The notes under the pieces are model-generated. The model saw only the letters and a program-made list of their open reading frames with translations, was not told where the DNA came from and did no database searches. The position numbers were made by a program, and so were the translations under genes. A stretch of 64,000 bases of DNA from Minisyncoccota bacterium (GTDB lineage: Bacteria; Patescibacteriota; Minisyncoccia; Phycocordibacterales; JABAAK01): the NCBI GenBank assembly GCA_963668425.1, contig OY764332.1, positions 41,241 to 105,240 of the forward strand, read 5' to 3'. Within the stretch, counting starts at the first letter, position 1, and each line of letters opens with the position of its first letter. Below, in pieces: positions 9,001 to 27,597 of this stretch.

Positions 9001-9980
9001 CGAGCGCAGAGGTAGTATGTACCACCCTCTTCGTCAACAATTGGAGTAAGAAAATGAGGGGTAGGAACACGAAACTGATATATACTAATCCCCTCATCGC
9101 ACTCAGTAATCTCAGAAGGAGAATAGTGTATGGCATATGCAAACGCTGCCCCTGAAGAAGAGGCAGTGGGAGCTCTCATAAGAGGGATATTTCGTTGTAG
9201 CCGCTCTGCCGCATTGATATACCCATCAGCAGCGCTGTTAATAAGGGTGGGTTGGGTGGTAATAGAGAGTTTGGGGAGAAGAGAGAGTATCTGTACGGTA
9301 AACGTGGCAGTAGCACTATTCCCCGCTTTGTCAGAAGCAGATACTTTAACGGTTGTATTTCCGGGCTTGATCCCCTTCAAAAGAAGACCTCGAGGTGCGA
9401 TGGAGGCAGAGACAAGCGCAGGGTTTGCCGGCGCTGAAACAGTAAATTTTAACGAGTTACCCTCGGAAAAAGCATTTTTTATAGGGATAACGGAAGAAGC
9501 ATTAGCATGAACACTGTGACGCAAGTCACTCCACAGAAGATTTGGTGACAGGATGTCTCTCTTTATAGCATGCGGACGAGAGATGTATAGAGTTTCTGCC
9601 CCCTGTTTACGAAACCGAACACAGACAAAATACACACCGTCACCTTCAAGGCCTCTGAAAAGATTTATGGTAGTAGGCACAGAAGCACTATAGTTAGTGA
9701 GCGTGCTACAGTTGATAAACGTGGTACTAGGACTTGGAGATTTTTGTACAGCATATTCAACCGTCACTCCGTTGGTTGCGACAACCGGCGTAGAGAGTAA
9801 AATCTTATTTGACAAAATCTCTGACCGGTTGATATACCCATCTTCTGCGGGACCGGTAAGTTCTGCATGGGTAGTAACAACAATGCTTTCAGGAGATTGG
9901 GCAAAGGCAATAAGAGAGAAGCTGCCAAGAGCGCACAGTAACAATACAAAAAACAATGTAAATGTGTGTTTATACCCCAT
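1..9980 (-). CDS. Giant secreted repetitive surface/adhesin-like protein, partial (more than 3326 codons; the C-terminus lies beyond the window start). N-terminal signal peptide, then many Ig-like modules.
   Basis: Reverse-complement reading from an ATG at 9978-9980 opens with MGYKHTFTLFFVLLLCALGSFSLIAFAQSP. The first in-frame upstream stop is at 9999-10001. No stop was seen in this frame down to position 1. The recurring motif (A/T)xDGYI(N/S)xxE is followed by TCxxxxGTY...DG.YYxCV and DxAGN(S/T) about every 130-200 aa (for example near 9840, 9215, 8600, 3890, 2730, 1570 and 990). All plus-strand ORFs in the track over this span are low-complexity V/T/S/A-rich antisense translations. The ORF track appears to omit ORFs that lack a stop inside the window. 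Confidence 0.72.
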   Translation of the reverse strand, partial: MGYKHTFTLFFVLLLCALGSFSLIAFAQSPESIVVTTHAELTGPAEDGYINRSEILSNKILLSTPVVATNGVTVEYAVQKSPSPSTTFINCSTLTNYSASVPTTINLFRGLEGDGVYFVCVRFRKQGAETLYISRPHAIKRDILSPNLLWSDLRHSVHANASSVIPIKNAFSEGNSLKFTVSAPANPALVSASIAPRGLLLKGIKPGNTTVKVSASDKAGNSATATFTVQILSLLPKLSITTQPTLINSAADGYINAAERLQRNIPLMRAPTASSSGAAFAYAIHYSPSEITECDEGISIYQFRVPTPHFLTPIVDEEGGTYYLCARASQKGYAPAYSQPLKIILDSVHPQSVQKLLSRYSVEKGDTISFDISGEFNEPSTFKVVQLSGSARVTISLVGSQLTLAALPSSQLGTAVLEIAATDIAGNPGRSKRRISIFVTAPRVVIAEHPALTPVVADGYISTADVVADLPLLTSGKADTEGVTVRFRASSVNSRTDRNASCSFVRSSNHQYSTDIPTTTSITKNGLVALCIEFSKPGFVTWHAPRFFIMRDTTAPKKTARSSQVAMAKGGSFTLSPHKFFVKESTPSHFTLSSVEDSEIATVSLSDDGTTLSFAALKEGKTSVSIQAADVAGNTTTRQLSLVVSSEIVITKEPRLSGVASDGKITLAERFSEDPVINGIVVSLESTAFSYAMVLSTTPVTTCTASTGTYKETVPNAVSFVSDGIYYLCVKAANSPLSPVYSAPLRIAVSSDVLFKMPPRLLGVASDGFIKNSESDSGQAIIGGIATHVASPTITYAVIPSSTPPEECALSSGTYQHTPPSALSFSTDGTYSLCVQVFKGNFPPSFFGPLIMLRDTKSPTISDVSAPSATALSHDITAVFEDTTSGLSYYRVALIDASDRCDSTTERFDDKQDISSDTRAQFTTPAYMVYARNNKRVCYEVADNAGNISYTQSRIIPIRSSTLTAEVTLPDGEVFVNGEWTTAEHLTVLITDPVSPHALTIDLSRCDECRVVPSSREALGNGGFQFVLETGKSSSQRKEVLILTGNDIGNQPHFIFRFGADKSAPSNPAFPSIVGLNSGVSGTTLPATDAGEVMDVGSGVWSHNVYGFVADPGDCIATIDTASFLPLHSSIEGEGAWLTGSVTTEIPQVPDESQNGKYLCRVLQDRVGNIAVRVSDIPVAIDLSAPRLVVDPIPEHSKLLSSAQVDTGYAQLANFFEDTSPITYAVTLRSSDSSVRLDSAVQIHTITENSLLAIRFLSPISVIVDVRATDAFGRSTTSSFIFKATDMFSATGAEIPPSGDRIVLSFKEDIAPESAVSALLSSAFSLSVTAIDGEGESVSHIDPDGAITVDGSIISLPLRTYWTFGDTVTLTYTAPSSGTTLQNTSGARVGSFTILIEDVATPSSDTIAPEVRIYAESARRAGLQKEGVSTDHLFYSSVAGEIVKKIPVRAEQTFYVVVRDRVSGEVLVSGVDQVIAALIPEDDTCPSATALKDGTLTTGEIVLSSKYASLPTEAVVEITTDLSRHTFCILVEDGNDNTPTPPVLESAAIPFGTIDTTIPTLERATLAEDSSAITLTFSEPLTTTSPSVSAFSLNHTARALDGSAVSYLTSVAISGNTVTLPLSVHWGTRGALRLSYTPPSIAPLRDIAENEVIAFETAVTFPESFLDDEDTSAPSIIIYQENGKAEGLQTSGLKSDTFTAAYRAPANGSRTSGLYNNVFSDTIYVTSTDTFDGGTTIGTGVDRLLIDVVPTYTTCPATVSEFSDTTTSFEGIASVSRALTLSATPEHAVSLIGRTLCFFFADREGNTGIVEVYGRSSSLPLSSEASDRYISLEESRSSNTLLAAVKPFSPNTTVAYALKHSADPITSCETGFSTLFKAALPRITDLKQDGDYYLCVRGTRRLSGDVDAVEYLPPRRIRRDTVIPTIVPDATLSYAITTGTPVTLPLTDVFNDAVRYTVGTPSDERVISASISSLDMLHISGIDEGSATVEITGHDVAGNSVSEVVSVVVFASRIKFITKSVLTNDATDGYISAPESTKKSALITAPIVSPFFAKVQYALKTSTTAITTCDADFGTYTSTRPTVASLTSDGTYYICVMAATAGLTTQYSEPVTLVRDTTVPELLTSAKTSYTLTVTTPATISVDTLFAGATEYAVADPTDTNVVTASFTSPTLTITPIDSGTSSIVVTGRDSAGNSHDVTLTLEVSSLALTAKTAPTLLNDATDGFITLKESTETTALVSAPVTTPAAIAKYAVKHSSTAITTCDATFGTYSTTVPTAVDLSKDGDHYLCALSEKKGYITIYTTPLKVVRDTVAPSIVADTPLTYAHTIEDERTIDLSDIFTGAVTYSVGAPSDSSVISTSFSTPELTFNAVGKGESTIVISATDTAGNSTEATITVTVSLFTLTFTSQPTLANDAVDGYVNAQESSATTSLVATSANADVAFTYALKQSSSAIATCDADFGTYTSTRPTVASLTSDGTYYICIRAIKTKYAPLYSTPLKVTRDSIAPQSAIGAKTSYTLTVTTPATISVDTLFAGATEYAVADPTDTNVVTASFTSPTLTITPIDSGTSSIVVTGRDSAGNSHDVTLTLEVSSLALTAKTAPTLLNDATDGFITLKESTETTALVSAPVTTPAAIAKYAVKHSSTAITTCDATFGTYSTTVPTAVDLSKDGDHYLCALSEKKGYITIYTTPLKVVRDTVAPSIVADTPLTYAHTIEDERTIDLSDIFTGAVTYSVGAPSDSSVISTSFSTPELTFNAVGKGESTIVISATDTAGNSTEATITVTVSLFTLTFTSQPALANDAVDGYVNASELRKAAFALVAAAETTQDTTITYALHYHATDALSICDASSGTYASALPTTTALTKDGMYSLCARAEKERYDAHYSSPLVIVRDTVAPTIAQGAKLVHAVNTITPVTIDLSTIFSNDAVTYAAGTPSDTAILTTAFESPNLTLTGIGNTSGTSTITVTGFDQAGNSIRGIFTVNVTVSTITITTPVTLINDAEDGYINEDESTNTTALVSAAVTTPTTTTEYAVKHSTNTISACDASFATYSATAPTAASLAKDGDHYICVRSKKGTNLISYHTPLKVVRDTSDPSVSADAPSTLFVIAGRSETIATTSLFTDEAVHFSAESPTETEVATASLSLTTLIITGVAKGNTKIVVTGFDAAGNSTEITIALTVTDAVITVITPSKLINDAEDGWINTEEVKNSVAFVSAPVTFPATTATYAMKHSAGAISSCDASFATYSATAPTATSLTKDGDHYICVQVQTGGLPTVFSAPIKLTQDTIAPVVSDVPEDDGRNRVGLIRRRDIAKHFTGGTRFVTEFS
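1556..3778. repeat. Two tandem copies of a 1161-bp (387-codon) unit inside the giant gene. They are near-identical at the nucleotide level except for an ~75-bp divergent patch.
   Basis: ORF-track pairs 1637..1873 and 2798..3034, 2035..2235 and 3196..3396, and 1467..2054 and 2712..3215 have identical translations offset by exactly 1161 bp. Direct comparison shows 1556-2459 equals 2717-3620. The copies diverge at 2460-2533 versus 3621-3694, then match again at 2534-2614 versus 3695-3775. Confidence 0.9.
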
Positions 9981-12744: not shown

Positions 12745-13665
12745 CTAGTGTGGGCGGTAGACCACTATTCCTGGTTTGTTTTTGAGGTAGGTGAGGAAGT
12801 CGTCGTCAATGACCTGCTGTGCTTTTTCTCTGGAGGAAGCGTGGCGTAGGTATGTTCCCCTGCTGTTTTTGATAAAGATACCGGTGTGCGTCACATCAAG
12901 TCCGTCAATGTCTGTGTATATTCCAATGTAGTCACCGGTGCGAAGGTTCTTCATGCTCTCGTCGGTAATAGCAGTAGACGGTATGTAGTTGATTGTACGA
13001 GACAGTATCGGAATTCCTTCTAGAAAAACACTGCCGTCTTTTTTCTGATTTAATTGCTTTTTAACAGGTATCGCCACATTACCCCCGACCTCTTTTGTCA
13101 CATCAGATACTTGATCACTGTTATACTTCACCCAGTCAGAAAAGAAGTGGTTTCTGTATTGAAACTCTACAATTCCGGATTTATATCGGGTGTGCTGTAA
13201 TGCGTTCAGAAAGGTGTCATATGAATCTGACAGGCGGGCTGCTTCAACATAATCAATATACGTAAAGCAATCCAACCCGGCGAGATGGACGGTGAGCTTT
13301 TCACGTGTTTTTGCACTTCCTACGAGGGTGTTCCCTTCATACGGGGTGCCTAAAAATTTCTCTGAGATGTGAGTAATTTGTTCTCCGATATCAGATAGGT
13401 GTGTGGATCCCTGTATTACACCAGAGAGTGTTTTTTTGGTCCAATTGCCAAGGTTTGTCTGTATGGCGTTCCTTGCCATTAGTCGCTCTCTTGCATGCAC
13501 TCCTGCTGGTATTGGGTCACCATGTTCCTGTGGTTCTATCTTGGCAAGCATAGAGAGCATGCTATATGCTATCCAGCTGATACCAATCAACATGCCCACC
13601 ATTCCTAAAAGTATTACTTTTGCTTTCATACTTATAGCGTACACTATGCCTGTCTTACACTGCAT
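12745..13665 (-). CDS. Membrane-anchored putative cell-wall hydrolase, NlpC/P60-superfamily (DUF1460-like, Cys/His papain-like).
   Basis: N-terminal TM segment MKAKVILLGMVGMLIGISWIAY. A GLDCFTYIDYVEAARL segment (candidate catalytic Cys) and ...DVTHTGIFIKNSRGTYLRHAS (candidate His) resemble DUF1460/amidase-like proteins. The assignment is from memory of the family. Confidence 0.4.
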   Translation of the reverse strand: MQCKTGIVYAISMKAKVILLGMVGMLIGISWIAYSMLSMLAKIEPQEHGDPIPAGVHARERLMARNAIQTNLGNWTKKTLSGVIQGSTHLSDIGEQITHISEKFLGTPYEGNTLVGSAKTREKLTVHLAGLDCFTYIDYVEAARLSDSYDTFLNALQHTRYKSGIVEFQYRNHFFSDWVKYNSDQVSDVTKEVGGNVAIPVKKQLNQKKDGSVFLEGIPILSRTINYIPSTAITDESMKNLRTGDYIGIYTDIDGLDVTHTGIFIKNSRGTYLRHASSREKAQQVIDDDFLTYLKNKPGIVVYRPH

Positions 13666-13732
13666 ATATTCTGGTTTTAGATTGCTGTATACTGGTTTTG
13701 TTTGTTATTAAGATGCTATCGTACAGTTATAT

Positions 13733-14599
13733 ATGAAGAAGAATATTAGTATTTTTACTCACGCAAAAAAGATATTTTTTGTGACCTATGTTCGTATTGT
13801 TGCAATTTTGATTGTGAGTGTTGCAGCGACTTTTCTAGTGGGTATTGGATCGGTGTCTGAGTTATTCTACTATGTAACTGGTTTGAATTATTTTACACCT
13901 GACTTTTTCTCAGTTTTCTTGGACACGTCTTCAGGTGCTCCGTGGATGGTGCCACTTGGTATTAGTATTAGCATTCTTGCGATGTTTTTACTCTTACTTA
14001 TTACTTTCGTCACTTCTGCCACGACTGCTTTTGTGCTGGTTCGTAATACATCATTCCTGGAATCAATCAAGCTTGGGGTTACCAAGGGCTTGCGATCTAT
14101 TCCGGCGCAAGCGTTGTTTCTTGCTCTGCTGGTTGTGAGTAGTATACCGAGCTTTCTACTTATACTTCTTTCTTTGAGAATAGCAAATGATGCAAATGGC
14201 GCATTGGCGTTGTTCTGTATACTGTTAGGAGCGCTTCTTCTTCTTTTGCCGTTTTTTATTGGCTTGCGATCTGTATTTGTGGTATTTATTTGGCTGGAAA
14301 ATCAAAAAGCGAGGGCATGGTCTATTGTGAAAAAATCCTTTGTACTTACTCAAGGTACTGTTATTTGGATGATGGTGCTTGCTATTGTTTTGGCTGGAGC
14401 TGGAGCGATGATTATTCACCCGTTGCTTGTTTTACTGCTATCCACGCTGGCTGTGTTGCCGTCCGGAGACACGCTCTCGGCGATTGTTGATCAGATTATT
14501 TCTATCTTCCTTCTTACACCGATTATGTACGCATTATTCTACACGTTTTACGTGCAGGCAAAAAAACGAGCTGTCAGTATTAAGAAAAGGAGTGTATAG
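13733..14599 (+). CDS. Polytopic integral membrane protein, hypothetical.
   Basis: 288-aa ORF with six or more hydrophobic segments. Its stop (14597-14599) is 2 nt before the M16 peptidase start at 14602, which suggests an operon. Confidence 0.55.
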   Translation: MKKNISIFTHAKKIFFVTYVRIVAILIVSVAATFLVGIGSVSELFYYVTGLNYFTPDFFSVFLDTSSGAPWMVPLGISISILAMFLLLLITFVTSATTAFVLVRNTSFLESIKLGVTKGLRSIPAQALFLALLVVSSIPSFLLILLSLRIANDANGALALFCILLGALLLLLPFFIGLRSVFVVFIWLENQKARAWSIVKKSFVLTQGTVIWMMVLAIVLAGAGAMIIHPLLVLLLSTLAVLPSGDTLSAIVDQIISIFLLTPIMYALFYTFYVQAKKRAVSIKKRSV

Positions 14600-14601
14600 C
14601 T

Positions 14602-15876
14602 ATGACTGAAACACAGACATTAGAGAACGGTATTACCGTATTGTTGAGTCCGGATGATCGGGCGGAGACGGTTTGCGTGCTGGTTGGTGTGGCAATTGGC
14701 GCGAATCATGAGGCAGGAAATGAATATGGCTTGGCGCATTTTTTTGAGCATATGTGCTTTAAGGGGACAAAGACCTATCCTACCAATGCAGAGCTTGTAA
14801 CACGCATGGATGAATCTGGGATTGTGGCGAATGCGTATACTGGCAGAGAGTACACTGCCTATTATATGTCTGGGCGGGCGGAACGGCTTCAGGATATACT
14901 GTGCTTAACTGCTGATATTTTCTTGCACTCTTTGTTTCCTGCAAATGAGTTGGCTAAAGAAAAAAAAGTAATCACTGAAGAGATAGTGATGTATCGGGAT
15001 GATCCGCTATCACGAGCATTTGATGAGGTGAGTCAATTGCTATTTCATGGTACTGTAGCTGAACACCCTGTCTTGGGGACGGCAGAATCAGTTTCTTCAT
15101 TTTCCCGGGACGATTTTGTTCGCTTTTTACAAAAGCATTACACGACAGCAAACACTATTATCTCTATAGCTGGAAAATTTGATCGTGATGCCGTGTTGCA
15201 GGAGTTAGAAAAACTATATGATAGTGCGATAGTGGGTCAGCAGACCGCGCAGGTTGTTATACCGCCTGTTTTGCCAAAAGAAAACCACCGCTCTGTGGTG
15301 CGGAGTGACTTAGAACAAACTCACATTGTTATAGGTGGCTATGCGCCGTCGTACAACAGCGTGGATCGGTATACGGCTGAGGTGTTTGATGTGCTATTCG
15401 GTGGATCTATGAGCTCTAGGTTGTTTTTCCGGGTACGGGAAAAGTTGGGGGCGTGTTACACCATCAAGACCTACGTAGATTTTATGACCCATGCTGGAGA
15501 ATTTTCTATCTACACTGGTATTGCCGGCAGGAGGATGCCAGAGGTGCTGGAAGCAATTGCTGATGAATGTGCACTTATCAAAAAAACACCGGTGCCTGAC
15601 GCGGAGCTGCAAAAAGCAAAGGAGTTCCTTCTCGGGCTGTATGCGGTACAGCAGGAAAGTAAAAATAGTATTGCGACTGAGCAAATGCATGCCTGTGCGC
15701 AAGGTGGCAAGACGGAAGATGGTGAGGAGTATAAGCGGGATATTTTGTCTGTTACATCTGAGGATGTTCAGCGTGTCGCCACTACTATTTTAGATAGCAA
15801 AAAAATGAGCACTTGTTATGTGTCCAATAGTGCAATTGAAAAGTCCATTACTGAGAATTTCTATAGTGGATTTTGA
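14602..15876 (+). CDS. M16-family (pitrilysin/insulinase-like) zinc peptidase.
   Basis: GLAHFFEHMCFKGTKTY matches the inverted zinc-binding HxxEH motif of M16 peptidases. The 424-aa length is typical. Confidence 0.85.
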   Translation: MTETQTLENGITVLLSPDDRAETVCVLVGVAIGANHEAGNEYGLAHFFEHMCFKGTKTYPTNAELVTRMDESGIVANAYTGREYTAYYMSGRAERLQDILCLTADIFLHSLFPANELAKEKKVITEEIVMYRDDPLSRAFDEVSQLLFHGTVAEHPVLGTAESVSSFSRDDFVRFLQKHYTTANTIISIAGKFDRDAVLQELEKLYDSAIVGQQTAQVVIPPVLPKENHRSVVRSDLEQTHIVIGGYAPSYNSVDRYTAEVFDVLFGGSMSSRLFFRVREKLGACYTIKTYVDFMTHAGEFSIYTGIAGRRMPEVLEAIADECALIKKTPVPDAELQKAKEFLLGLYAVQQESKNSIATEQMHACAQGGKTEDGEEYKRDILSVTSEDVQRVATTILDSKKMSTCYVSNSAIEKSITENFYSGF

Positions 15877-15908
15877 TTGCTGTTGTTGCCCCTTGATCCC
15901 CCTCAATG

Positions 15909-19839: not shown

Positions 19840-19930
19840 CTATACAGTATTAAAAAGAATCTTTCTTTACTAATTGTACCACATATTCTGTATTTGGCAA
19901 TAACTTCTGGACTGCACACTACATGCTATT

Positions 19931-21215
19931 TTCCATACTACCCTGCCCTCTGGACAGCACGTCTATTTGTATGATGTCGCTGTGTGTTATTTTTTAATCT
20001 ACTAGTAGGCACTATGTGCATAGAGCATGGTGCCGTGTTACACTTTAGGTACTACAAAGGAGTTTTTTTCTATGGCATTACGTACCACAAAACAATATGT
20101 TCTTTCTGTTGCACTACTTGTGCTTGTTGTTGGTGTGTTTCTTTTTTTCTCCCCTGCACAGGTTGTAAGAGATCCTTCTGTGTCTGAAGAGAGTTTGGTG
20201 CAATCATCTTTACCGAGTCGTGCACCTGAGGGATATGCAGTGCCTGCACGAGAGGTAGTCACTCTTCCCTTTACCCATGTCAGTGCTGATCGTCTTCGTC
20301 TTGGAGATGTTCGGGAGGTGGCTGAAGGAAGGTGGGTAACGGTCATAAATCCATCTGTTGATAATTACTACAATGTATCGCCTGATGGGCAATGGTCGTT
20401 ATTCACAGGATTAAATCTTTACATCACCAGAACCGATGGATCTGGTGAAGTGCGCGAACTCTTTGCAAGAGAAGCAAATGATTCTAGCAAAGGGTATATT
20501 TTTAGATCTGCTTTCATTCCAACCGCTTGGTCTTGGGATAGCAATCGTGTCTTTTACAAGATGATACGCAGATATTTGGTTGGTCAAAATTTTTTGAATG
20601 CTGAATACGAACAATGGATTGAGAGTGTTAACATTGAGACAGGTGAAGTTACTCGCCATCCTGACATTGGTTTTAGTGATAATCTTCATAGTCACGCTAC
20701 TGCTCGCTATCCTACTGACCCAATTCTGTTTGATGACAGACCTGATTACCGACTGCATGGTATCAAAACTCATGATGGCTCTGTCAGATGGGTAATTCCT
20801 GGTTTCAGCCCATTTTCTCTTTCACCGAATAAGCGATTGGTTCTAGGGCTTGAAGAAGGTGGCAAAATAATCGGTGAAACAGGATATATCATGCATTACC
20901 TTATTTATGCCGTTGATGGAACTGGTCCGCTATACAGTTTTTACGCTGCAGATACCCCCAAATGGTCCCCTGATAGCAGTAAGTTCGCCTATTACCATGT
21001 AACAGAACGTGAAGCTGATACTGGCATCCTTCTTGCCTCAGATATCTATCTTATGAACATAGACGGCACTGGTATAACTCAACTCACTGATACGCCTGAT
21101 ATTCCTGAGCGTCTCCATGGTTGGACCCCGGATGGTCGTCTTGTTTTTAGTATCGAAGAAGATTTGTATATCGCTGACCTTGTTACAGAATAATTGAAAG
21201 GAGAAAACTGATGAA
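19931..21215. repeat. Direct repeat copy 1 (~1.29 kb): promoter region, TolB-like gene, and the first 8 codons of the downstream amidase gene.
   Basis: 19931-20060 is about 97% identical to 24701-24830. The genes encode about 70% identical proteins over their 5' halves. The 3' ~420 nt are nucleotide-identical (20790-21215 versus 25560-25985). Copy 1 ends with atgaaacgagttttttgttgtg (MKRVFCC), the same start as the amidase gene at 25981. Confidence 0.9.
20027..21193 (+). CDS. Membrane-anchored TolB-like beta-propeller (PD40/WD40-like repeat) protein, paralog 1.
   Basis: N-terminal TM segment VALLVLVVGVFLFFSP. PD40-type repeats: YNVSPDGQWSL, KWSPDSSKFAYYH, HGWTPDGRLVF. The start may be the internal Met (MALRTTKQ) at 20072. 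Confidence 0.7.
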   Translation: MVPCYTLGTTKEFFSMALRTTKQYVLSVALLVLVVGVFLFFSPAQVVRDPSVSEESLVQSSLPSRAPEGYAVPAREVVTLPFTHVSADRLRLGDVREVAEGRWVTVINPSVDNYYNVSPDGQWSLFTGLNLYITRTDGSGEVRELFAREANDSSKGYIFRSAFIPTAWSWDSNRVFYKMIRRYLVGQNFLNAEYEQWIESVNIETGEVTRHPDIGFSDNLHSHATARYPTDPILFDDRPDYRLHGIKTHDGSVRWVIPGFSPFSLSPNKRLVLGLEEGGKIIGETGYIMHYLIYAVDGTGPLYSFYAADTPKWSPDSSKFAYYHVTEREADTGILLASDIYLMNIDGTGITQLTDTPDIPERLHGWTPDGRLVFSIEEDLYIADLVTE

Positions 21216-21329
21216 ACGAGTTTTTTGTTGTGCATGTATTTGACACAGGACTTGCAGCATGACATACTTTTTGCAGAGCCTATTATTGATTTGAAAGATT
21301 ACATATATACAGGAGGAAATGTAGTGAAA

Positions 21330-21620
21330 CATATGTTTACTGCAATTGTTATGCTGTTGCTGTGCATAATCGTTACTGGATGTGAAAAAGGTGTTGATAT
21401 ACTCACACCTGCTCTTTCTGAAGACCCGGTTCATATATCAGATGATGAGTCAGAAATAGCTGTATCTGATGATGTTGAGTGCTTTGACGATCCACAGGAT
21501 GTGCCTGAATGGTGGTATTCTGTTGTGAGCGTTCCAGATCCTGATGATGGTGTGCCGGATCATAATTTTATACTTTGCGATGAAGATCAGGAAGAAATCA
21601 TGGATGAGGATCTGGAGTAA
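21330..21620 (+). CDS. Small acidic lipoprotein, hypothetical (track ORF 21225..21620; start taken at the internal Met before the signal peptide).
   Basis: MFTAIVMLLLCIIVTGCEKG gives a lipobox. The C-terminal half is very Asp/Glu-rich (DDESEIAVSDDVECFDDPQDVPEWW...DEDQEEIMDEDLE). Confidence 0.4.
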   Translation, partial: HMFTAIVMLLLCIIVTGCEKGVDILTPALSEDPVHISDDESEIAVSDDVECFDDPQDVPEWWYSVVSVPDPDDGVPDHNFILCDEDQEEIMDEDLE

Positions 21621-21632
21621 CTTCTTTTAATA

Positions 21633-21660
21633 CCCCCCCCCGTATAATGGGGGGTTCTTT
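21633..21660 (+). terminator. Rho-independent terminator (C9 / gtataat / G6 hairpin followed by TTCTTTT).
   Basis: tacccccccccgtataatggggggttcttttatgg lies 13 bp after the stop of the 21330..21620 gene. Confidence 0.6.
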
Positions 21661-21770
21661 TATGGATAAGCAGCGAAAATATTAACCACGGTCAACAATA
21701 TTGCGGTAATTTTCATATTACAATTGTAACATAACCATAGATTTCAGCGCTTCGTTACTACTGTTTATTC

Positions 21771-23510
21771 TTATTTTGTATGTGTTCTTTCTTGAATTTT
21801 AGCTTTTATGATATCTGTCTCTAATCTGTACAATAGATGAGATATGCTACTTAATATATCTAGGCAATCTTTATCAGTAAAGATGTTTTTTGAGAAATCT
21901 ACTTCTTTTTTCTTAGTGGCTGTTTCATGATGACGGGTTATGTTTGCGGCGGCACAGCACCCTCTTGCTATACAGAAATTACTTTCCTCTAAATCATTTT
22001 TCACAGCTTTATCTAGTGGAACTTTTTCCAAACTTCCGCAATCTTTGCCATCTTTGCTATCTTTGCTAAGATATTCATTAATTAGTTTTGCGCCACTCAT
22101 ATTCTTCTCCCCACTGACCTTTTTTAACTCCATTTCATATATTTCCCATGCTTTCGTTAATGCGCTTGTGTAATCTTTCTTCTTGTAGTCTGCAAGAATT
22201 TTATTCTCCTTCTTCAATTTTTTATGGAGATAGCGCCAATGAAATTCTGCATATTCGGGAACAATCTCCAACACATCGCTCACTATTTTTTCTTCACGAT
22301 CTGGATGCTCTTCCGCAAGCAAAAACAATGATCGTAACGGTTCTTTTTTGTCATCAGGAATATTCTCTTGATACTTCTTAAAATCAATACTACTTAACTT
22401 TTCTGATATTTTTTTGGTAGCGCTCTCTTTCCTCATTTCACGCCACTTTTTTTCGGTACCGTTTATTATATCTTTCAAGCAATCTTCCAAAGGTTTTAAT
22501 TCTTCGTTATCCCAATCCAAAGTTCTCCTGTTCGTTGCGACCATGTCCTCTTCTTTATCCTCAATAAAGTCTATATGAATTTCTCCTGTAATGTATCTGA
22601 AGAAATTGCTTGAGGCACTGCCGAAGGCAGTCGGCTCATTAACCAATTTATTTCTTGCAAAGAGAGAAACACCTTGCATATCTTTCCGCGGTAGAGGCGA
22701 TCTTGCAGTTTTTATGATGCCTTTAATCTTACCCTTGAACACATTGTGTTGCTCAGGTATTTGTTCATCCCCTACTTGAAACTCGCCCTCTATATCAATT
22801 CCCTCAACTCTCAGTTTGTTGCTCAGAGTGTACTCATTACCATCTCCTTCTTTAACTACCACCAAAAAATCGTTGCCAAAGTTGACCCTCCTCGATAAAC
22901 TAACTGCAAGCTCTTTTACATCAATCTTTGTCTTTCTTTTGACCTCTGTAAGAGTGATTTTTGTTCCGCTACTCATCTGTGTATCAACGTCATTCTCTAT
23001 TAGCTTAAAAGAACACTTGTCGTCTTGAGATTTCTCAATATCTCTCCAATCCATTTGAAACATGTTCATTTTTCCATTTTTAATTGTTCTCACCTCAACA
23101 ATATTTGCTATACCGAACATAGCAAGCTTCCCCAACCCTTTTCTACCAGTAATTTTTCGTCCGTTTGGACTGGTATCGCCCTCCTCTTCTTTCCTTCTCT
23201 TTCTTCCGACTATGAGAAAGCGCTTTGCTAAATCTTCACGGCTCATGCCTAAACCATCGTCCTCAATCTCTATGCTCTTTACACTGTTCTTATCTTGCTG
23301 TATTGAAATCGTAATCTTTTTTGCATCTGCATCATATGCATTAGAAATACTCTCCACAAGCCCGTGTGGCAATCGTGTATACATCTTTATACCCAAATCA
23401 CCTATAGTCCTCGGGTCAAAAATTAATGGCAAACTGTCATTCATAGTAAATATTCTAAATCCACCCCTCTTTGTTAATGGAATGTTCTTTGAAGATAAAA
23501 TATAAAGCAA
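21771..23510 (-). CDS. GHKL-superfamily (HATPase_c_3 / MutL-MORC-like) ATPase, the likely second component of a restriction-modification or defence system with the adjacent cytosine methyltransferase.
   Basis: Bergerat-fold motifs: LVESISNAYDADA (N-box), IEIEDDGLGMS (G1 box), TGRKGLGKLAMFG (G2 box). The likely true start is MNDSLPLIFDPR. It lies 6 bp downstream of the methyltransferase on the same strand. The C-terminal ~300 aa is Lys/Glu-rich with scattered Cys and is unassigned. Confidence 0.7.
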   Translation of the reverse strand: MLYILSSKNIPLTKRGGFRIFTMNDSLPLIFDPRTIGDLGIKMYTRLPHGLVESISNAYDADAKKITISIQQDKNSVKSIEIEDDGLGMSREDLAKRFLIVGRKRRKEEEGDTSPNGRKITGRKGLGKLAMFGIANIVEVRTIKNGKMNMFQMDWRDIEKSQDDKCSFKLIENDVDTQMSSGTKITLTEVKRKTKIDVKELAVSLSRRVNFGNDFLVVVKEGDGNEYTLSNKLRVEGIDIEGEFQVGDEQIPEQHNVFKGKIKGIIKTARSPLPRKDMQGVSLFARNKLVNEPTAFGSASSNFFRYITGEIHIDFIEDKEEDMVATNRRTLDWDNEELKPLEDCLKDIINGTEKKWREMRKESATKKISEKLSSIDFKKYQENIPDDKKEPLRSLFLLAEEHPDREEKIVSDVLEIVPEYAEFHWRYLHKKLKKENKILADYKKKDYTSALTKAWEIYEMELKKVSGEKNMSGAKLINEYLSKDSKDGKDCGSLEKVPLDKAVKNDLEESNFCIARGCCAAANITRHHETATKKKEVDFSKNIFTDKDCLDILSSISHLLYRLETDIIKAKIQERTHTK

Positions 23511-23516
23511 GCATCC

Positions 23517-24575
23517 TCAAGTTACATGCCTGTGATGTTTTATTATAGCATCCCCCATTTTTTTTGCATAAAATGGTGGCACTGCATTGCCGATCATGCG
23601 GGCTATTTGGCTGATGCTGTCACCAATAAAAGTGTATTTTTTTGGAAACGTTTGCAAGGTTGCTCCCTCTCTTAGGGAAATGGCACGGTTCTCTTCTGGG
23701 TGAGCAAATCTACCGTTTGATATGCTAAAAAACTTTGTAGTGAGCGTGGGTGCTGGCCTGTTCCACGACATACGACCGTATGTGTCACTGAACGATGTAT
23801 TTCCATTCTTATGCTTATATGCGTTAATCTGTAAATCAGTATTTGCCCAGACATTTCGTGAACCGCCATCCTTTTTTGTCATTTTCAATCTCCTCAGATT
23901 TTCTTCGCTTAGTCCAGCCACTGTGTGAAGAAATCTTGTTGTATCTTTATGACCAGCAGAGATTTTTTTAAACCCGTTCTTTTCTCCTATAAAATCAGCA
24001 ACAACAGGCCTATTTTTTGTCTTTTTTGGAAAGACACTTTTGTCACTCACCCTATTGGCAATTAAAGAAAATCTTTTTCTCGTTTCTGGTACTCCATAGT
24101 GATGGAGGTTTACCACTTCATAATAAACTGTGTAACCACTTTTTTGCAATGATTGCACAAATATATCTAACCCACTTTCCTTGTATTTTTTTAATATACC
24201 AGGAACATTTTCAACGACAACATACCCAGGGTTATAATATTTTACAAAGCGGTGAAAATCATTCAAGAGATGCTTTGATTTTTTTGATCTGTTTTTATTG
24301 GTTCTGATTATTGTCCAGTATTGACAAGGACTGCATCCGACGAATATAAGATTATCATCATTTCTCTTGATGTTAATTTCTCTTGACAGGTAACTCTCTT
24401 TTAATTTTTTAATATCAGCTAGGATATATCTTGATCCCTTTATGTTTGCCTCATAGGTTTCTTGGCATTTTGGATCAATGTCAATACCAGCAAGAACATC
24501 AATACCTGCTTTTTGTAAGCCGAAACTCATTCCCCCGCCAGAACAAAAAAAATCAACTGCTTTTATTGCGTTCAT
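23517..24575 (-). CDS. DNA (cytosine-5)-methyltransferase.
   Basis: Motif I VDFFCSGGGMSFGL; motif IV GCSPCQYWT (PCQ); motif VI VVVENVPGIL (ENV); motif X RMIGNAVPPF. Length is 352 aa. Confidence 0.92.
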   Translation of the reverse strand: MNAIKAVDFFCSGGGMSFGLQKAGIDVLAGIDIDPKCQETYEANIKGSRYILADIKKLKESYLSREINIKRNDDNLIFVGCSPCQYWTIIRTNKNRSKKSKHLLNDFHRFVKYYNPGYVVVENVPGILKKYKESGLDIFVQSLQKSGYTVYYEVVNLHHYGVPETRKRFSLIANRVSDKSVFPKKTKNRPVVADFIGEKNGFKKISAGHKDTTRFLHTVAGLSEENLRRLKMTKKDGGSRNVWANTDLQINAYKHKNGNTSFSDTYGRMSWNRPAPTLTTKFFSISNGRFAHPEENRAISLREGATLQTFPKKYTFIGDSISQIARMIGNAVPPFYAKKMGDAIIKHHRHVT

Positions 24576-24700
24576 ACACTGTTATGGTAGCATCCTATAC
24601 TGCCTCAAAGGTTTCATGACCAATTATTGTAAAAATACCGTTATATTCATTATGACAGGCGATACAGGATTTTTCTGTAACTTTTATGTGTGCTACTTTC

Positions 24701-25985
24701 CATGCTACCCTGCCCTTTGGACAGCACGTCTATTTGTATGATGTCGCTGTGTGTTATTTTTTAACCTACTAGTAGGCACTATGTGCATAGAGCATGGTGC
24801 CGTGTTACACTTTAGGTACTACAAAGGAGTTTACTATGGCATTACTTAAGACAAAACGATATGTTTTTTCTGTTGCACTGCTTGTGCTTGTTGGTGGCGT
24901 TGTTTTTTTACTTGTTTCTCCTGCACAGGTTGTAAGAGAGTCCGCATTACCTGAAGAGAGCTTGGTGCAATCGTCTTTACCGAGTCGTGCACCGGTAGGG
25001 TATGAGGTACCTACACGACCTGTCGTTACCTTTCCCTTTACGCATGTTAGTGCTGATCGTCTTCGTCTTGGGAATATTCAAGAGGTGTCTGAAGGAAGGT
25101 GGGTAACGGTCATAAATCCATCTGTTGATAATTACTACAATGTATCGCCTGATGGGCAATGGTCGTTATCCAGAGGATTAAATCTTTACATCACCAGAAC
25201 CGATGGATCTGGTGAGAAGCGTGCACTGCTGACACACTCAAGAGATAATCCTGATGATATAATATATATCTCTACCAATCGAATTGTTTGGTCCTGGGAT
25301 AGCAGTCGCATTTTCTACCCATTTAGGCGACAATACTACCTTGATGCAGAAAGTCTAACTAGTGAATATGAACAATGGGTTGAGAGTGTTAACATTGAGA
25401 CAGGTGAAGTTACTCGTCATACTGATATTGGCTACTACGCCAATCTTCATAGTCACGCTACTGCTCGCTATCCTACTGACCCTGTTATATTTGACGATAG
25501 TTTTGATTACCCACCAGAAGGCCCTCGTGGTATCAAAACTCATGATGGCTCTGCCAGATGGGTAATTCCTGGCTTCAGACCATTTTCTCTTTCACCGAAT
25601 AAGCGATTGGTTCTAGGGCTTGAAGAAGGTGGCAAAATAATCGGTGAAACAGGATATATCATGCATTACCTTATTTATGCCGTTGATGGAACTGGTCCGC
25701 TATACAGTTTTTACGGTGCAGATACCCCCAAATGGTCCCCTGATAGCAGTAAGTTCGCCTATTACCATGTAACAGAACGTGAAGCTGATACTGGCATCCT
25801 TCTTGCCTCAGATATCTATCTTATGAACATAGACGGCACTGGTATAACTCAACTCACTGATACGCCTGATATTCCTGAGCGTCTCCATGGTTGGACCCCG
25901 GATGGTCGTCTTGTTTTTAGTATCGAAGAAGATTTGTATATCGCTGACCTTGTCACAGAATAATTAAAAGGAGGAAACTAATGAA
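24701..25985. repeat. Direct repeat copy 2 (~1.29 kb), partner of 19931-21215.
   Basis: See copy 1. The two copies bracket the small lipoprotein gene plus the methyltransferase/ATPase cassette. Confidence 0.9.
24794..25963 (+). CDS. Membrane-anchored TolB-like beta-propeller protein, paralog 2.
   Basis: 389 aa. Same architecture as 20027..21193. The C-terminal 140 aa are identical at both protein and nucleotide level. Confidence 0.7.
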   Translation: MVPCYTLGTTKEFTMALLKTKRYVFSVALLVLVGGVVFLLVSPAQVVRESALPEESLVQSSLPSRAPVGYEVPTRPVVTFPFTHVSADRLRLGNIQEVSEGRWVTVINPSVDNYYNVSPDGQWSLSRGLNLYITRTDGSGEKRALLTHSRDNPDDIIYISTNRIVWSWDSSRIFYPFRRQYYLDAESLTSEYEQWVESVNIETGEVTRHTDIGYYANLHSHATARYPTDPVIFDDSFDYPPEGPRGIKTHDGSARWVIPGFRPFSLSPNKRLVLGLEEGGKIIGETGYIMHYLIYAVDGTGPLYSFYGADTPKWSPDSSKFAYYHVTEREADTGILLASDIYLMNIDGTGITQLTDTPDIPERLHGWTPDGRLVFSIEEDLYIADLVTE

Positions 25986-27597
25986 ACGAGTTTTTTGTTG
26001 TGTAGGTGTGTTGTTGTGTTTTATGTTGCTACAGAGTGCTATTGCCCAGACCTATCGTATCTACATAGATCCAGGGCATTACAAGGGCAATGGTGCTAGT
26101 CATGTGCATGAGAAAACCGGGGAGCTGATACGTGAGGAGGATATATCTCTTGCAGTTGGCTTGAAGCTTCGTGCTCTTCTCATGAGTGACACCTTTACTG
26201 GTGTCACCTGGGATGTGCGGATGTCTCGCATGGGACCAGATTCACGTACTCGTGCACTGAGTGACCCAAAGAATAGAGCAGAAGATGCGATAGATTTTCG
26301 AGCAGGTATATTCATCAGCATCCACTGTAATAAAGGTAAGGGAGATGGTACTGAAACCTTTTGGGCTGACAGAAAGGATACTGATCTTGACAACAGAGGA
26401 ATACCGATAGGATTTGCATTCAAGAAACAAAGTGTCAACAATAAGAGTAAACGCCTTGCTGGACTTGTGCACAAGCACATGGTATCCCGTGGTAATTGGT
26501 CTAGTCGTTCTCATGATACAGAAAGTAGTGAGGGAGAAACTCTGGATCAAAAATATATGATTAACCGCACGGCTAAATTCTTTGAGGACGACACTCGATT
26601 CCCCGGCTTCGGAGGACATATTCCAATACTTCTGGCGCTTAAGGGTGTTCCCGGCTGCCTCAATGAGATAGGGTTTCTTGACAATCAGAAGAACTTGGAA
26701 AAGTTGGTGTCTCCGTACTGGCAACATCGGTTTGCTGAGGCGTATCGGGATGCTATTTTTGAGTATGTTGGATTAGAGATGCCAGAGTATCTCACTGTCT
26801 ATTTGGAGCCAGGTCAGAACATGATCTCTTGGCCTGGTATTCCTATTGGCACTGGTAGCAGAGGAGTCCTTATCAACAGTGAGCAGTTTCCAGCGACTCG
26901 AATACTGAGACGATGGAATCCTGAGAAAAAAGAACATGAACGAGTTAGTCAGGTTGTCTTTGGTGAAGGGTATCTACTGTACGTACCAGCACGAAGAGCG
27001 GAGGGAGAGTTACTAGATATTTCCTTTTTCCCTCAAACTTCTTACACACTACAGTTGAAAAGTGGGTTCAATATGATTGGTAGTGTTTCTGGCCATACCT
27101 TGTTCTCAACTATTGTAGATAGAGTGAATAGAGGAGGTGTACAGTGTCTTGACTCAACGTTCTTGATTTTGCGTAATGGGAGGTTGACCGTGGATAGTGA
27201 TGGTGTCATGCGACCAGGTGTTGGATATCTTGTGCGGGCATGTAAAGATGTTGAGATAACGGTGTCTGCTTCGTTGGCAGCACCTTCTGTGGTGTCTCTT
27301 CCTGCAGAGACCCAGCTGTTTGCTAACTTCCCTAACCCTTTCAATCCTGAGACGTGGATACCGTTTCATTTGCAGAATGCTGGGGAGGTTACTCTTTCTA
27401 TCTATGGTGTCTCAGGACACCTTGTTAGAACTATACCTCTTGGTCATCTTTCCTCAGGTTCCTATGATACCAAAGACACTGCTGCCTACTGGGATGGTAG
27501 GAATGAACACGGTACTCAGGTTGCCTCTGGTATCTACTTCTATACACTAGAGACACAAGGTGTTTCTTTTACTAGAAAGATGGTGGTGTTGAAGTAG
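25981..27597 (+). CDS. Secreted N-acetylmuramoyl-L-alanine amidase (Amidase_3 family) with a C-terminal beta-sandwich resembling the T9SS type-A sorting domain (FlgD-Ig-like).
   Basis: Signal peptide MKRVFCCVGVLLCFMLLQSAIA. Amidase_3 motifs RIYIDPGHYKGNGAS and IFISIHCNKGKGDGTETFW. The C-terminal 90 aa, FANFPNPFNPETWIPFHL...VTLSIYGVSGHLVRTIPLG...AAYWDGRNEHGTQVASGIYFYTLET...RKMVVLK, matches the consensus N[YF]PNPFNP..TI.F.L......V.L.IYd.sGrlVrtL....l.aG.....WDG.d..G..vasGvYfy.L.......KmvllK closely. Confidence 0.8.
   Translation: MKRVFCCVGVLLCFMLLQSAIAQTYRIYIDPGHYKGNGASHVHEKTGELIREEDISLAVGLKLRALLMSDTFTGVTWDVRMSRMGPDSRTRALSDPKNRAEDAIDFRAGIFISIHCNKGKGDGTETFWADRKDTDLDNRGIPIGFAFKKQSVNNKSKRLAGLVHKHMVSRGNWSSRSHDTESSEGETLDQKYMINRTAKFFEDDTRFPGFGGHIPILLALKGVPGCLNEIGFLDNQKNLEKLVSPYWQHRFAEAYRDAIFEYVGLEMPEYLTVYLEPGQNMISWPGIPIGTGSRGVLINSEQFPATRILRRWNPEKKEHERVSQVVFGEGYLLYVPARRAEGELLDISFFPQTSYTLQLKSGFNMIGSVSGHTLFSTIVDRVNRGGVQCLDSTFLILRNGRLTVDSDGVMRPGVGYLVRACKDVEITVSASLAAPSVVSLPAETQLFANFPNPFNPETWIPFHLQNAGEVTLSIYGVSGHLVRTIPLGHLSSGSYDTKDTAAYWDGRNEHGTQVASGIYFYTLETQGVSFTRKMVVLK

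Follow-up and report, generated by a model that had tools for sequence, protein, structure and literature searches.

GHKL ATPases have been described in several kinds of restriction-modification (R-M) loci. Orlowski and Bujnicki (2008, Nucleic Acids Research (NAR) 36:3552, PMC2441816) listed GHKL-containing putative type II enzymes, among them R.HgiDII, with a GHKL domain and an unassigned C-terminus, and the R.NmeAIP subfamily, with a GHKL domain and Hypoth_Ymh. Iyer et al. (2008, PMC2292703) defined families of paraMORCs that are located in R-M operons alongside cytosine methylases and Vsr. Anantharaman et al. (2013, Biol Direct 8:15, PMC3710099) assigned Ymh to the HEPN families and noted its fusion to paraMORCs in R-M neighborhoods; the fusions were called pMORC-Ymh and placed among the paraMORCs. 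That a GHKL ATPase may control a C-terminal effector has a precedent, because the anti-phage activity of VcSduA/paraMORC3 of Vibrio cholerae was shown experimentally to need both the ATPase and the nuclease residues (Nat Microbiol 2025, PMC12137116). No experimental study of the paraMORC-Ymh family was found in the literature searched, in which its annotation is computational only. The present analysis concerns a member of this family in a Minisyncoccota (Patescibacteria) genome, encoded in a 64,000-nt stretch of contig OY764332.1 (positions 41,241 to 105,240), hereafter the window, to which all coordinates refer unless another contig is named. A C5-cytosine DNA methyltransferase gene (23517-24575, minus strand) and a paraMORC-Ymh gene (21771-23444, minus strand) form a cassette that lies, with a small lipoprotein gene, between two copies of a TolB-like gene.

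Taken as a whole, the locus is on balance probably an R-M-like module of a C5-methylase and a paraMORC-Ymh protein, the latter acting as a methylation-gated RNase, with flanks shaped by recent gene conversion. The architecture and the R-M context of the module were predicted 13 to 18 years ago, and the current understanding is not overturned. What is new is the occurrence in Patescibacteria, the non-canonical HEPN motif of the clade, and the conversion among paralogs around the cassette. An earlier note, written from the sequence of this locus, had likened the pair to MORC/MutL-like ATPases reported to be linked to R-M systems, and the literature does describe them in R-M operons (PMC2292703). 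It had also called the function of the ATPase partner open; there a prediction for this architecture and its Dcm/R-M context had already been published (PMC3710099, PMC2441816), and the C-terminal HEPN domain had been overlooked.

The paraMORC-Ymh gene most likely starts at ATG 23444, and the predicted protein then has 557 aa with 72 nt between the methyltransferase stop and the start codon. The deposited window protein, P0001, has the same length and the N-terminus MNDSLPL, where the N-termini of the family align. The 579 aa and 6-bp spacing given in the earlier note belong to the longer open reading frame (ORF), which opens at TTG 23510. The protein consists of a GHKL + S5 ATPase module (approximately residues 1-300, 22545-23444), a helical linker, and, at the C-terminus, a HEPN domain of the Ymh family (approximately residues 396-557, 21774-22259), all on the minus strand. 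The ATPase ORF matches PF13589 (HATPase_c_3) with E 3.5e-23, and residues E31, N35, D62, G64, G66, G100, G103 and G105 of the GHKL boxes are invariant in an alignment of 20 sequences. The N, G1 and G2 boxes that had been noted are thus borne out and the ATP-binding motifs are intact. An S5-fold transducer domain is present directly after the GHKL domain. The C-terminal domain matches Hypoth_Ymh (PF09509) with E 4.4e-5 and 23.8 bits (cut-off 25) and TIGR02391 with 25.1 bits (cut-off 39.45). Close relatives of the protein hold a precomputed PF09509 assignment.

Fold comparison gave the same division (the two values of each match follow in brackets). The N-terminal ~290 residues matched MORC3 (21.7, 278), SMCHD1 (20.6, 294), MORC2 (19.9, 289), TRAP1 (18.1, 316) and the MutL N-terminal domain (~17, 266-273); the best of these, MORC3, is 16% identical. 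The helical C-terminus matched the HEPN protein 2hsb (10.4, 104), the HEPN domain of sacsin (8.1, 111) and a HEPN toxin (7.5, 110), and likewise AbiA, Csm6 and Roquin. Because of the fold matches of both its ends, the protein is described as a GHKL + S5 (MORC-like) ATPase with a C-terminal HEPN domain. The earlier note had suggested looking for a nuclease fold in the C-terminal 300 aa, and HEPN is one, of the RNase and not the DNase kind. It had also proposed a methyltransferase-linked GHKL protein distinct from MutL and HtpG, which agrees with MORC3 as the best fold and with model scores far below the cut-offs. For MutL, TIGR00585 gives 29.5 bits against a cut-off of 180 and covers residues 55-96 only, and the C-terminus is an all-helical HEPN; for HtpG/Hsp90, NF010683 gives 28.3 bits against a cut-off of 455, and the PDB match to the HtpG N-terminal domain reaches only E 0.0088. 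Both candidates were rejected. Sequence identity to eukaryotic MORC proteins and sacsin is 14-17%, and the window protein is without CW, coiled-coil and chromatin-reader domains.

The closest described system is the pMORC-Ymh or R.NmeAIP group. The window protein has the same N-terminal GHKL + S5 paraMORC, the same C-terminal Hypoth_Ymh/TIGR02391 HEPN domain, a length within the range of ~535-565 aa, and a gene that adjoins that of a DNA methylase. It differs in that its clade reads NIxRH where the family reads RNxxxH, in domain scores slightly under the curated cut-offs, and in its host, a Patescibacteria genome of ~0.7 Mb. The proven type II enzymes R.HgiDII and R.BbrUII, whose partners are m5C methylases, are homologous over the first ~390 residues (GHKL + S5 and the region that follows) and also have an adjacent Dcm-type methylase, but their C-terminal ~260 residues are replaced by HEPN in the window protein. 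The restriction-enzyme model for this family (NF050001) matches with E 2.5e-63 and ~215 bits, below its cut-off of 550, over residues 35-396 and profile positions 9-395 of 659, and the family's own C-terminal domain is unmatched; two PADLOC REase_II models match equally partially (E ~1e-33). By this comparison the window protein is a relative of HgiDII/BbrUII with a swapped effector, not a member. ParaMORC3/VcSduA (Shedu type I-D) resembles it as a paraMORC-type GHKL ATPase fused to a C-terminal effector nuclease, but there the effector is a DUF4263 PD-(D/E)xK DNase and the gene stands alone with no obligate methylase partner. The only sequence likeness seen is a 28.6% tblastn match to an E. 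coli phage gene that bears the annotation 'ParaMORC3', over its GHKL part, the gene compared being this one and not VcSduA itself. Membership in Shedu type I-D was rejected, there being no DUF4263 PD-(D/E)xK match in Pfam or PADLOC and the C-terminus being a helical HEPN.

The HEPN domain of the window protein deviates at the motif by which such domains are recognized. The family usually reads G-x-R-N-P-x-x-H, and the window protein with its small clade (46-50% identical) reads N-I-[TSA]-R-H. In the window protein itself the alignment gives A-N-I-T-R-H, with the variant active-site motif at N501-I-T-R-H505 (21930-21944, minus strand): its Asn and its His do not vary, the Arg of the canonical form is gone, and another Arg, specific to the clade, precedes the His. 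The canonical HEPN motif Rx4-6H (RNxxxH) is thus not found, and the RNase activity of the window protein is therefore uncertain. Among 80 metagenomic members of the family the motif is RNxxxH in 68, R[SCH]PxxH in nine and KNPVxSH in two, and NIxRH occurs in none. A search with the C-terminal domain, which covered 1.84 billion representative proteins, gave 71 homologues; 47 have the canonical motif and nine have NIxRH, which is confined to the window clade. The presumed catalytic motif is rewired in this small clade of Patescibacteria, where RNase activity is less certain.

The partner protein, of 352 aa, is a full-length match to PF00145 (E 1e-56, profile positions 2-324 of 324) and scores 143 bits with TIGR00675 (cut-off 100.65) and E 5.9e-86 with the PADLOC MTase_II model. 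The motifs FCSGGG, SPCQ, ENV and GNAVPP are visible in its translation, and the claim of a complete C5-methyltransferase holds. Its gene is 100% identical, with zero differences in 1,059 nt, to that of a sister strain (contig L005, 13391-14449), which was sampled separately and where the cassette (98.6% identical) occupies the same site. Sequence matches in the PDB (Dnmt1, M.HaeIII, M.HhaI) were uninformative about the specificity of the methylase. It is 55-57% identical to the methylases of loci that also carry HaeII, and neither RGCGCY nor GCGC is under-represented in the window by a maximal-order Markov model. As a separate observation, three other palindromes are strongly under-represented across the whole window, TCGA (35 observed, 127 expected), GGCC (31, 107) and AGCT (120, 205), which suggests that other restriction systems exert, or once exerted, pressure on the genome.

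The association of the two genes is general. More than 280 homologues with the HATPase_c_3 + PF09509 architecture and ~535-565 aa were found by database search, in Yersinia, Serratia, Enterobacter, Pantoea, Hydrogenophaga, Bacteroides and Omnitrophica, under the name 'TIGR02391 family protein'; the identity of the window protein to mainstream members of the family is 33-38% over >90% of the length. The gene tables of three family members place a PF00145 gene immediately upstream on the same strand, and the arrangement is the same in loci L001-L004. To these were added 80 metagenomic loci, fetched with the family alignment, whose ORFs were scanned with a Dcm hidden Markov model. Dcm lies directly upstream on the same strand in 68, directly downstream in nine and ~650 nt upstream in one, that is, it is adjacent in 78 of 80, and the contigs of the remaining two are too short to judge. 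The linkage to Dcm across phyla is effectively obligate.

Other neighbors are less constant. When the neighboring genes were clustered, Vsr (PF03852) was present in 36 of the 80 loci, the HaeII endonuclease (PF09554, E 1e-160) lay upstream in 11, and every other cluster was present in at most seven. Of the 34 loci flanked on either side by 1.5 kb or more, 8 are strict two-gene units like that of the window, a count to be read with the limit that such clustering misses very diverse restriction enzymes and does not prove 'no other nuclease' for each single locus. TIR, type I R-M and integrase genes often share defense islands with the modules.

The two partners have been re-paired in the course of evolution. 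Pairwise identities of methylases and ATPases correlate only moderately (r 0.64). For example, the window Dcm is 75% identical to that of locus L084, whose ATPase is 35% identical to the window's, and it is only 34-36% identical to the Dcm proteins encoded in L001 and L002 beside the nearest relatives of the window ATPase (49%). Partner swapping of this kind speaks against an ATPase protein whose sequence specificity is fixed and co-inherited, and since methylases and ATPases are re-paired, recognition would be supplied by the methylase.

Homologues were also seen in a phage and in a pathogen. In the P2-like Yersinia phage P37 (L110, MT239398.1, 1968-5013), a Dcm gene ends 4 nt before a gene for a 670-aa hypothetical protein. 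This protein and the window ATPase are homologous over residues 1-481 (28.7% identity); the pairing of a methylase with a GHKL protein is therefore phage-borne as well. By tblastn, Neisseria gonorrhoeae (L108, NZ_CP119142.1, 4098-6635) has an unannotated homologue, 31% identical at 98% coverage, split into ORFs of 297 and 198 aa. Upstream of it, in the position expected for the methylase, the ORFs are short and overlapping, and all of these look like pseudogenes. When E. coli genomes were searched with the Yersinia module, only the methylase part was matched.

A mechanism can be proposed from these features. The methylase would mark the host's own DNA, and a dimer of the MORC-like ATPase would act as an ATP-driven DNA clamp and sensor, its target recognition probably borrowed from the partner methylase in the way that type III Res takes its own from Mod. 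DNA that is unmethylated, because it is foreign or post-segregational, would turn on the C-terminal HEPN dimer, which would cleave RNA, not DNA, and lead to translation arrest or abortive infection. HEPN chemistry is a metal-independent cleavage of RNA via the 2'-OH and is unsuited to DNA.

We put forward more tentatively, as a possibility that falls short of the probable, that Dcm and paraMORC-HEPN are an R-M system whose restriction arm fires an RNase instead of cutting DNA, a methylation-gated abortive-infection or addiction module, re-engineered in the window clade with the catalytic Arg beside the His (NIxRH). In this reading a MORC-like, ATP-driven clamp would detect unmethylated DNA with sequence recognition lent by the methylase, which would account for the free re-pairing of methylases and ATPases. 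Should the proposed mechanism be right, this would be a widespread two-gene module that links epigenetic self-marking of DNA to suicide or arrest at the RNA level, bridging classical R-M and abortive infection, and a bacterial model for MORC-type ATPases that read the methylation state of DNA. The strict linkage to Dcm and the culturable homologues in Yersinia, Serratia, Enterobacter and Pantoea make it directly testable. To this the window adds that the module reaches ultra-small Patescibacteria genomes, that one clade has a non-canonical HEPN motif, and that active conversion among surface-protein paralogs at its flanks could pop the cassette out.

Several observations weigh against the methylation-gated RNase as the explanation of the locus. 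Methylation sensing, the complex of methylase and ATPase, and the RNase activity are all inferred. The PF09509 and TIGR02391 scores of the window protein lie below the curated cut-offs, and without the canonical Rx4-6H Arg its HEPN domain may be inactive or act differently. Most loci are without another nuclease, which is compatible with a DNA-cutting role too. Furthermore, the ATPase gene, compared with that of the sister strain (L005, 11636-13318), has seven synonymous and 24 non-synonymous differences and a 3-aa indel; the ratio of non-synonymous to synonymous polymorphism (pN/pS) is ~0.83 between the sister strains, as against ~0.11 in housekeeping neighbors (synonymous polymorphism, pS, ~0.06). 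The differences are concentrated in residues 333-393 and 448-492 (the linker and a low-confidence loop) and spare residues 86-332 and the motif. Constraint may have been relaxed, or surface and linker regions may be under pressure to diversify; the pattern fits both. With respect to the flanks, the tandem could ultimately go back to an old duplication or to one that the insertion created, as discussed below.

It is unlikely, but still to be taken into account, that the ATPase-HEPN protein is what its REBASE-style label suggests, a true DNA-cleaving restriction endonuclease, type II-like or ATP-dependent, with its DNase site in an unrecognized part, and that the locus is an ordinary R-M system. 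The 214 bits scored with the BbrUII/HgiDII model, the REase_II matches and the obligate linkage to Dcm would all be expected of such an enzyme; Vsr is common at these loci, as in 5-methylcytosine (m5C) R-M systems, and neither the window nor the operon of the 8 two-gene loci among the 34 well-flanked ones shows another candidate nuclease. The match to the model, however, ends at profile position 395 of 659, and the part that HEPN replaces is the HgiDII-specific C-terminal domain, the presumed nuclease. The chemistry of HEPN does not suit DNA, and in the 11 loci with HaeII a separate restriction enzyme is at hand.

Less probable again is a guard of the PrrC/RloC kind, that is, an RNase of the anticodon type that the methylase or R-M complex keeps latent and that fires only when a phage inhibits the complex, not when DNA is unmethylated. 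Such a role was predicted in print (PMC3710099), and the analogy, drawn from the literature, is close in architecture: PrrC and RloC also have an N-terminal regulatory NTPase and a C-terminal RNase and stand in an R-M locus as a second line of defense. The gene order R.HaeII, methylase, ATPase-HEPN in 11 of the 80 loci and the frequent company of TIR, type I R-M and integrase genes would suit a guard. The ATPase of PrrC and RloC is of the ABC and not the GHKL type, their RNase domain differs, and PrrC sits among type I hsd genes, whereas the constant partner of the window ATPase is a lone Dcm methylase. Against a guard it counts that most loci, the window included, are without a restriction enzyme to guard, that the strict pairing is with the methylase alone, and that the homology between the sensor module and genuine restriction enzymes suggests direct surveillance of DNA.

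MutL stimulates Vsr in E. coli. A repair module, in which a MutL-like ATPase aids very-short-patch repair of the T:G mismatches made by the linked Dcm, is very improbable: Vsr does adjoin the genes in 36 of the 80 loci and the analogy has been discussed (PMC2292703), but the window cassette has no Vsr, a HEPN domain is without a role in such repair, the best folds are MORCs and not MutL (whose model score is far below its cut-off), and the distribution is patchy and island-like, with atypical G+C.

Around the cassette, the ORF list gives the following order: an aldehyde dehydrogenase gene and a gene for a 141-aa lipoprotein, both on the minus strand; then, on the plus strand, copy A of the TolB/PD40-like beta-propeller gene and a small acidic ORF; the 579-codon ORF and the 352-aa ORF on the minus strand; and a second TolB-like gene (copy B, 24794-25963) followed by the gene of a 538-aa amidase (25981-27597). 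Pairwise alignment and boundary computation place direct repeats at 19924-21237 (repeat A, plus strand) and 24691-26007 (repeat B, plus strand), 86% identical over ~1,327 aligned columns, far above the chance level. Each contains an upstream element of ~145 nt, a TolB-like gene, an intergenic ribosome-binding site (RBS) and the first 8 codons of the amidase gene (MKRVFCC). In repeat A these are a 5' fragment (MKRVFCC and one further codon, 21211-21234, plus strand) that is seen in translation and in the amidase N-termini of the window, L005, L007 and L008 and is followed by a stop in the window strain; in repeat B they begin the intact amidase gene. The inter-repeat segment (21238-24690, 3.46 kb) holds the lipoprotein ORF, the GHKL ATPase ORF and the C5-methyltransferase gene, and its right end, upstream of the methyltransferase gene up to repeat B (24576-24690, by the alignment boundary), is conserved in L005. 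The arrangement had been read in this way in the earlier note, both as to the cassette and lipoprotein gene between two TolB-like copies, on which ORFs and repeat boundaries agree, and as to the promoter and 8 amidase codons in each copy, on which alignment and translation agree.

The flanking genes resemble TolB only weakly (PD40 E 0.0056; TIGR02800 20 bits, with the cut-off at 343). In a capped scan of genome contigs with the TolB-like protein, the matches obtained were distant PD40 proteins of unrelated phyla, with no close relative among them. By alignment of the upstream regions they probably start at ATG 20072 and 24836, behind AAAGGAG, and not at 20027 and 24794 where the ORFs open, and the conserved -10 and RBS fall inside the extended ORF; copy A then spans 20072-21193 and copy B ends with its stop at 25963. 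The family has at least four paralogs in the source genome. The last ~420 nt of the two copies, which had been called identical, are nearly so: the terminal tract of 426 nt has 4 mismatches (99%), and the longest exact run is 237 nt. For the 5' halves an amino-acid identity of ~70% had been given; the overall identity of copies A and B is 80%, and the divergence is concentrated in codons ~130-250, where synonymous divergence (dS) is 0.67, as against 0.03 in the last 170 codons.

The sister strain shows how this pattern probably arose. The flanks of L005 are 97-98% identical to those of the window, but its TolB-like copies are a different mosaic. Its position-A copy is 96.9% identical to window copy B. 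Its position-B copy (14668-15894) shares the first ~90 codons with the window copies and is 50-75% identical beyond them; the two L005 copies correspondingly share only the 5' ~400 nt and past codon 90 are 50-75% identical to each other (dS 0.75). Window copy B is itself chimeric, with codons 1-90 100% identical to L005 copy B and codons ~120-420 100% identical to L005 copy A. The L005 position-B variant also occurs elsewhere in the genome of the window strain, as P0128 (94% identical), so that paralogs have moved or been exchanged between loci within the species. Since L005 has the cassette but differently mosaic flanking copies, the cassette predates the near-identical tract. The long tract is, on this comparison, a product of recent gene conversion after the cassette was in place rather than a scar of insertion, and the conversion overwrote the first amidase codons too. 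The different mosaics of the sister strains agree with the ongoing gene conversion that had been proposed. Excision by homologous recombination, suggested at the same time, is plausible given the 237-nt exact tract and 426 nt at 99%, and the identical tract would permit RecA-mediated loss of the cassette. That the two copies are an assembly artefact, a repeat collapsed or expanded, is next to impossible and was rejected: 1.3-kb repeats with a 237-nt exact tract can mislead short-read assemblers, but the copies differ at 14% of positions and the flanks of each are unique, and in L005, assembled independently from another sample, the genes follow in the same order and the cassette again lies between two different TolB-like genes, which bears out the two-copy arrangement.

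The origin of the cassette and that of the tandem are separate questions. G+C is 0.33-0.40 within the cassette and 0.42-0.46 around it. A related contig (L006, RNase HII 94% identical) encodes a protein homologous to the upstream lipoprotein, followed by a single TolB-like gene and the amidase gene and then, as in the window, by MutY, RNase HII and DnaE, with no cassette; it thus provides the cassette-free, single-copy relative that the earlier note had suggested looking for, although it is not conspecific, its TolB-like protein being only 55% identical. The lower G+C and the absence from the syntenic site of L006 point to a foreign origin. As part of the explanation held on balance probable, the 3.46-kb segment would carry a horizontally acquired two-gene R-M-like module together with a lipoprotein gene on the opposite strand. 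No mobility genes (integrase, transposase), terminal inverted repeats or short target duplications were found in a search inside the cassette.

For the tandem, an old duplication whose junction received the cassette is favored over a duplication made by the insertion. That the insertion itself created the TolB-like duplication as a long target duplication, whose copies were later blurred by divergence and conversion, is unlikely, though among the alternatives considered here it keeps the most weight. R-M systems without mobility genes do occur between long direct repeats of 46-423 bp (Furuta et al. 2010, PMC2853133), such cases being defined by R and M homologues in an insert of less than 20 kb, direct repeats of more than 30 bp, and a related genome in which one uninterrupted target copy aligns with both repeats. 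The window resembles them in its short insert, its long direct repeats of host sequence, the absence of transposase, integrase and terminal inverted repeats from the cassette, and a single-copy relative without the insert, L006, with synteny on both sides. The cassette moreover sits exactly at the junction of a tandem duplication that takes in the promoter as well as 8 codons of the gene downstream. But a repeat of 1.3 kb is about three times longer than any reported case, the genes belong to a shuffling family of at least four copies in the source genome, and L006 is not conspecific. In the sister strain the mosaic differs, with flanking copies so divergent past codon 90 that the identical tract is younger than the insertion. 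Distant relatives have the TolB-like + amidase unit in tandem repeats, and in one of them (L007) a TolB-like gene, an 8-codon amidase fragment and the next TolB-like gene follow each other with no cassette between. Insertion with target duplication, in the form in which the earlier note had offered it, is not supported by these findings.

The small acidic lipoprotein gene (21333-21620, plus strand; 95 aa, with the lipobox MFTAIVMLLLCIIVTGC in its translation) has no family match, and its only homologue among the sequences compared is that of L005 (98%). A promoter-like site for it (TTGACA, 17 nt, TG-CATACT; 21240-21268, plus strand) and a terminator-like G+C-rich hairpin followed by a T-run, found by a terminator scan between the convergent lipoprotein and ATPase genes (21636-21654, plus strand), are both consensus matches only. 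By blastn breakpoints a 113-nt segment (21239-21351), with the TTGACA/-10 promoter-like site and an RBS, is missing from L005 (11215-11219), where the amidase-derived start (MKRVFCCVCTLLLLCIIVTGC...) and the lipoprotein gene form an in-frame fusion.

A conserved non-coding element of ~145 nt precedes every TolB-like paralog, also in genomes whose proteins are only 45-55% identical. It was located at 19924-20071 and 24691-24835 in the window, at 9890-10048 in L005, at 9855-10003 in L006, at 5625-5768, 8515-8658 and 9855-10003 in L007, and at 1195-1341 and 4045-4189 in L008. It is made up of CTCTGGACA.., a short hairpin that has a T-run, and an inverted repeat showing compensatory changes, which lies immediately upstream of an extended -10 (TGTTAYACT); AAAGGAG follows. 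Rfam gave no match to it (tRNAs were all that it found), and RNAalifold gave a weak consensus (-5.3 kcal/mol) that does not support a structured leader RNA; the element resembles a promoter and operator more than it does a structured RNA.

The amidase (25981-27597) combines Amidase_3, FlgD_ig and a sub-threshold C-terminal sorting domain of the type IX secretion system (T9SS) type (Por_Secre_tail), which is unexpected in Patescibacteria. In L007 (3152-14642) and L008 (410-8009), two or three tandem TolB-like + amidase units adjoin or lie within the ribosomal-protein cluster, an unusual place for surface-protein genes: those of L007 stand between the L16 and S17 genes, with an IS1595-type transposase gene, and those of L008 upstream of S17 at the start of the contig. 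In another relative (L109, RNase HII 87% identical; 7475-9090 and 13039-15553), other defense-type genes replace the TolB-like and amidase genes near RNase HII and DnaE, namely the genes of an N4/N6 methylase and its 226-aa partner, that of a reverse transcriptase, and one that is DpnI-like. The RNase HII neighborhood appears to be a variable island.

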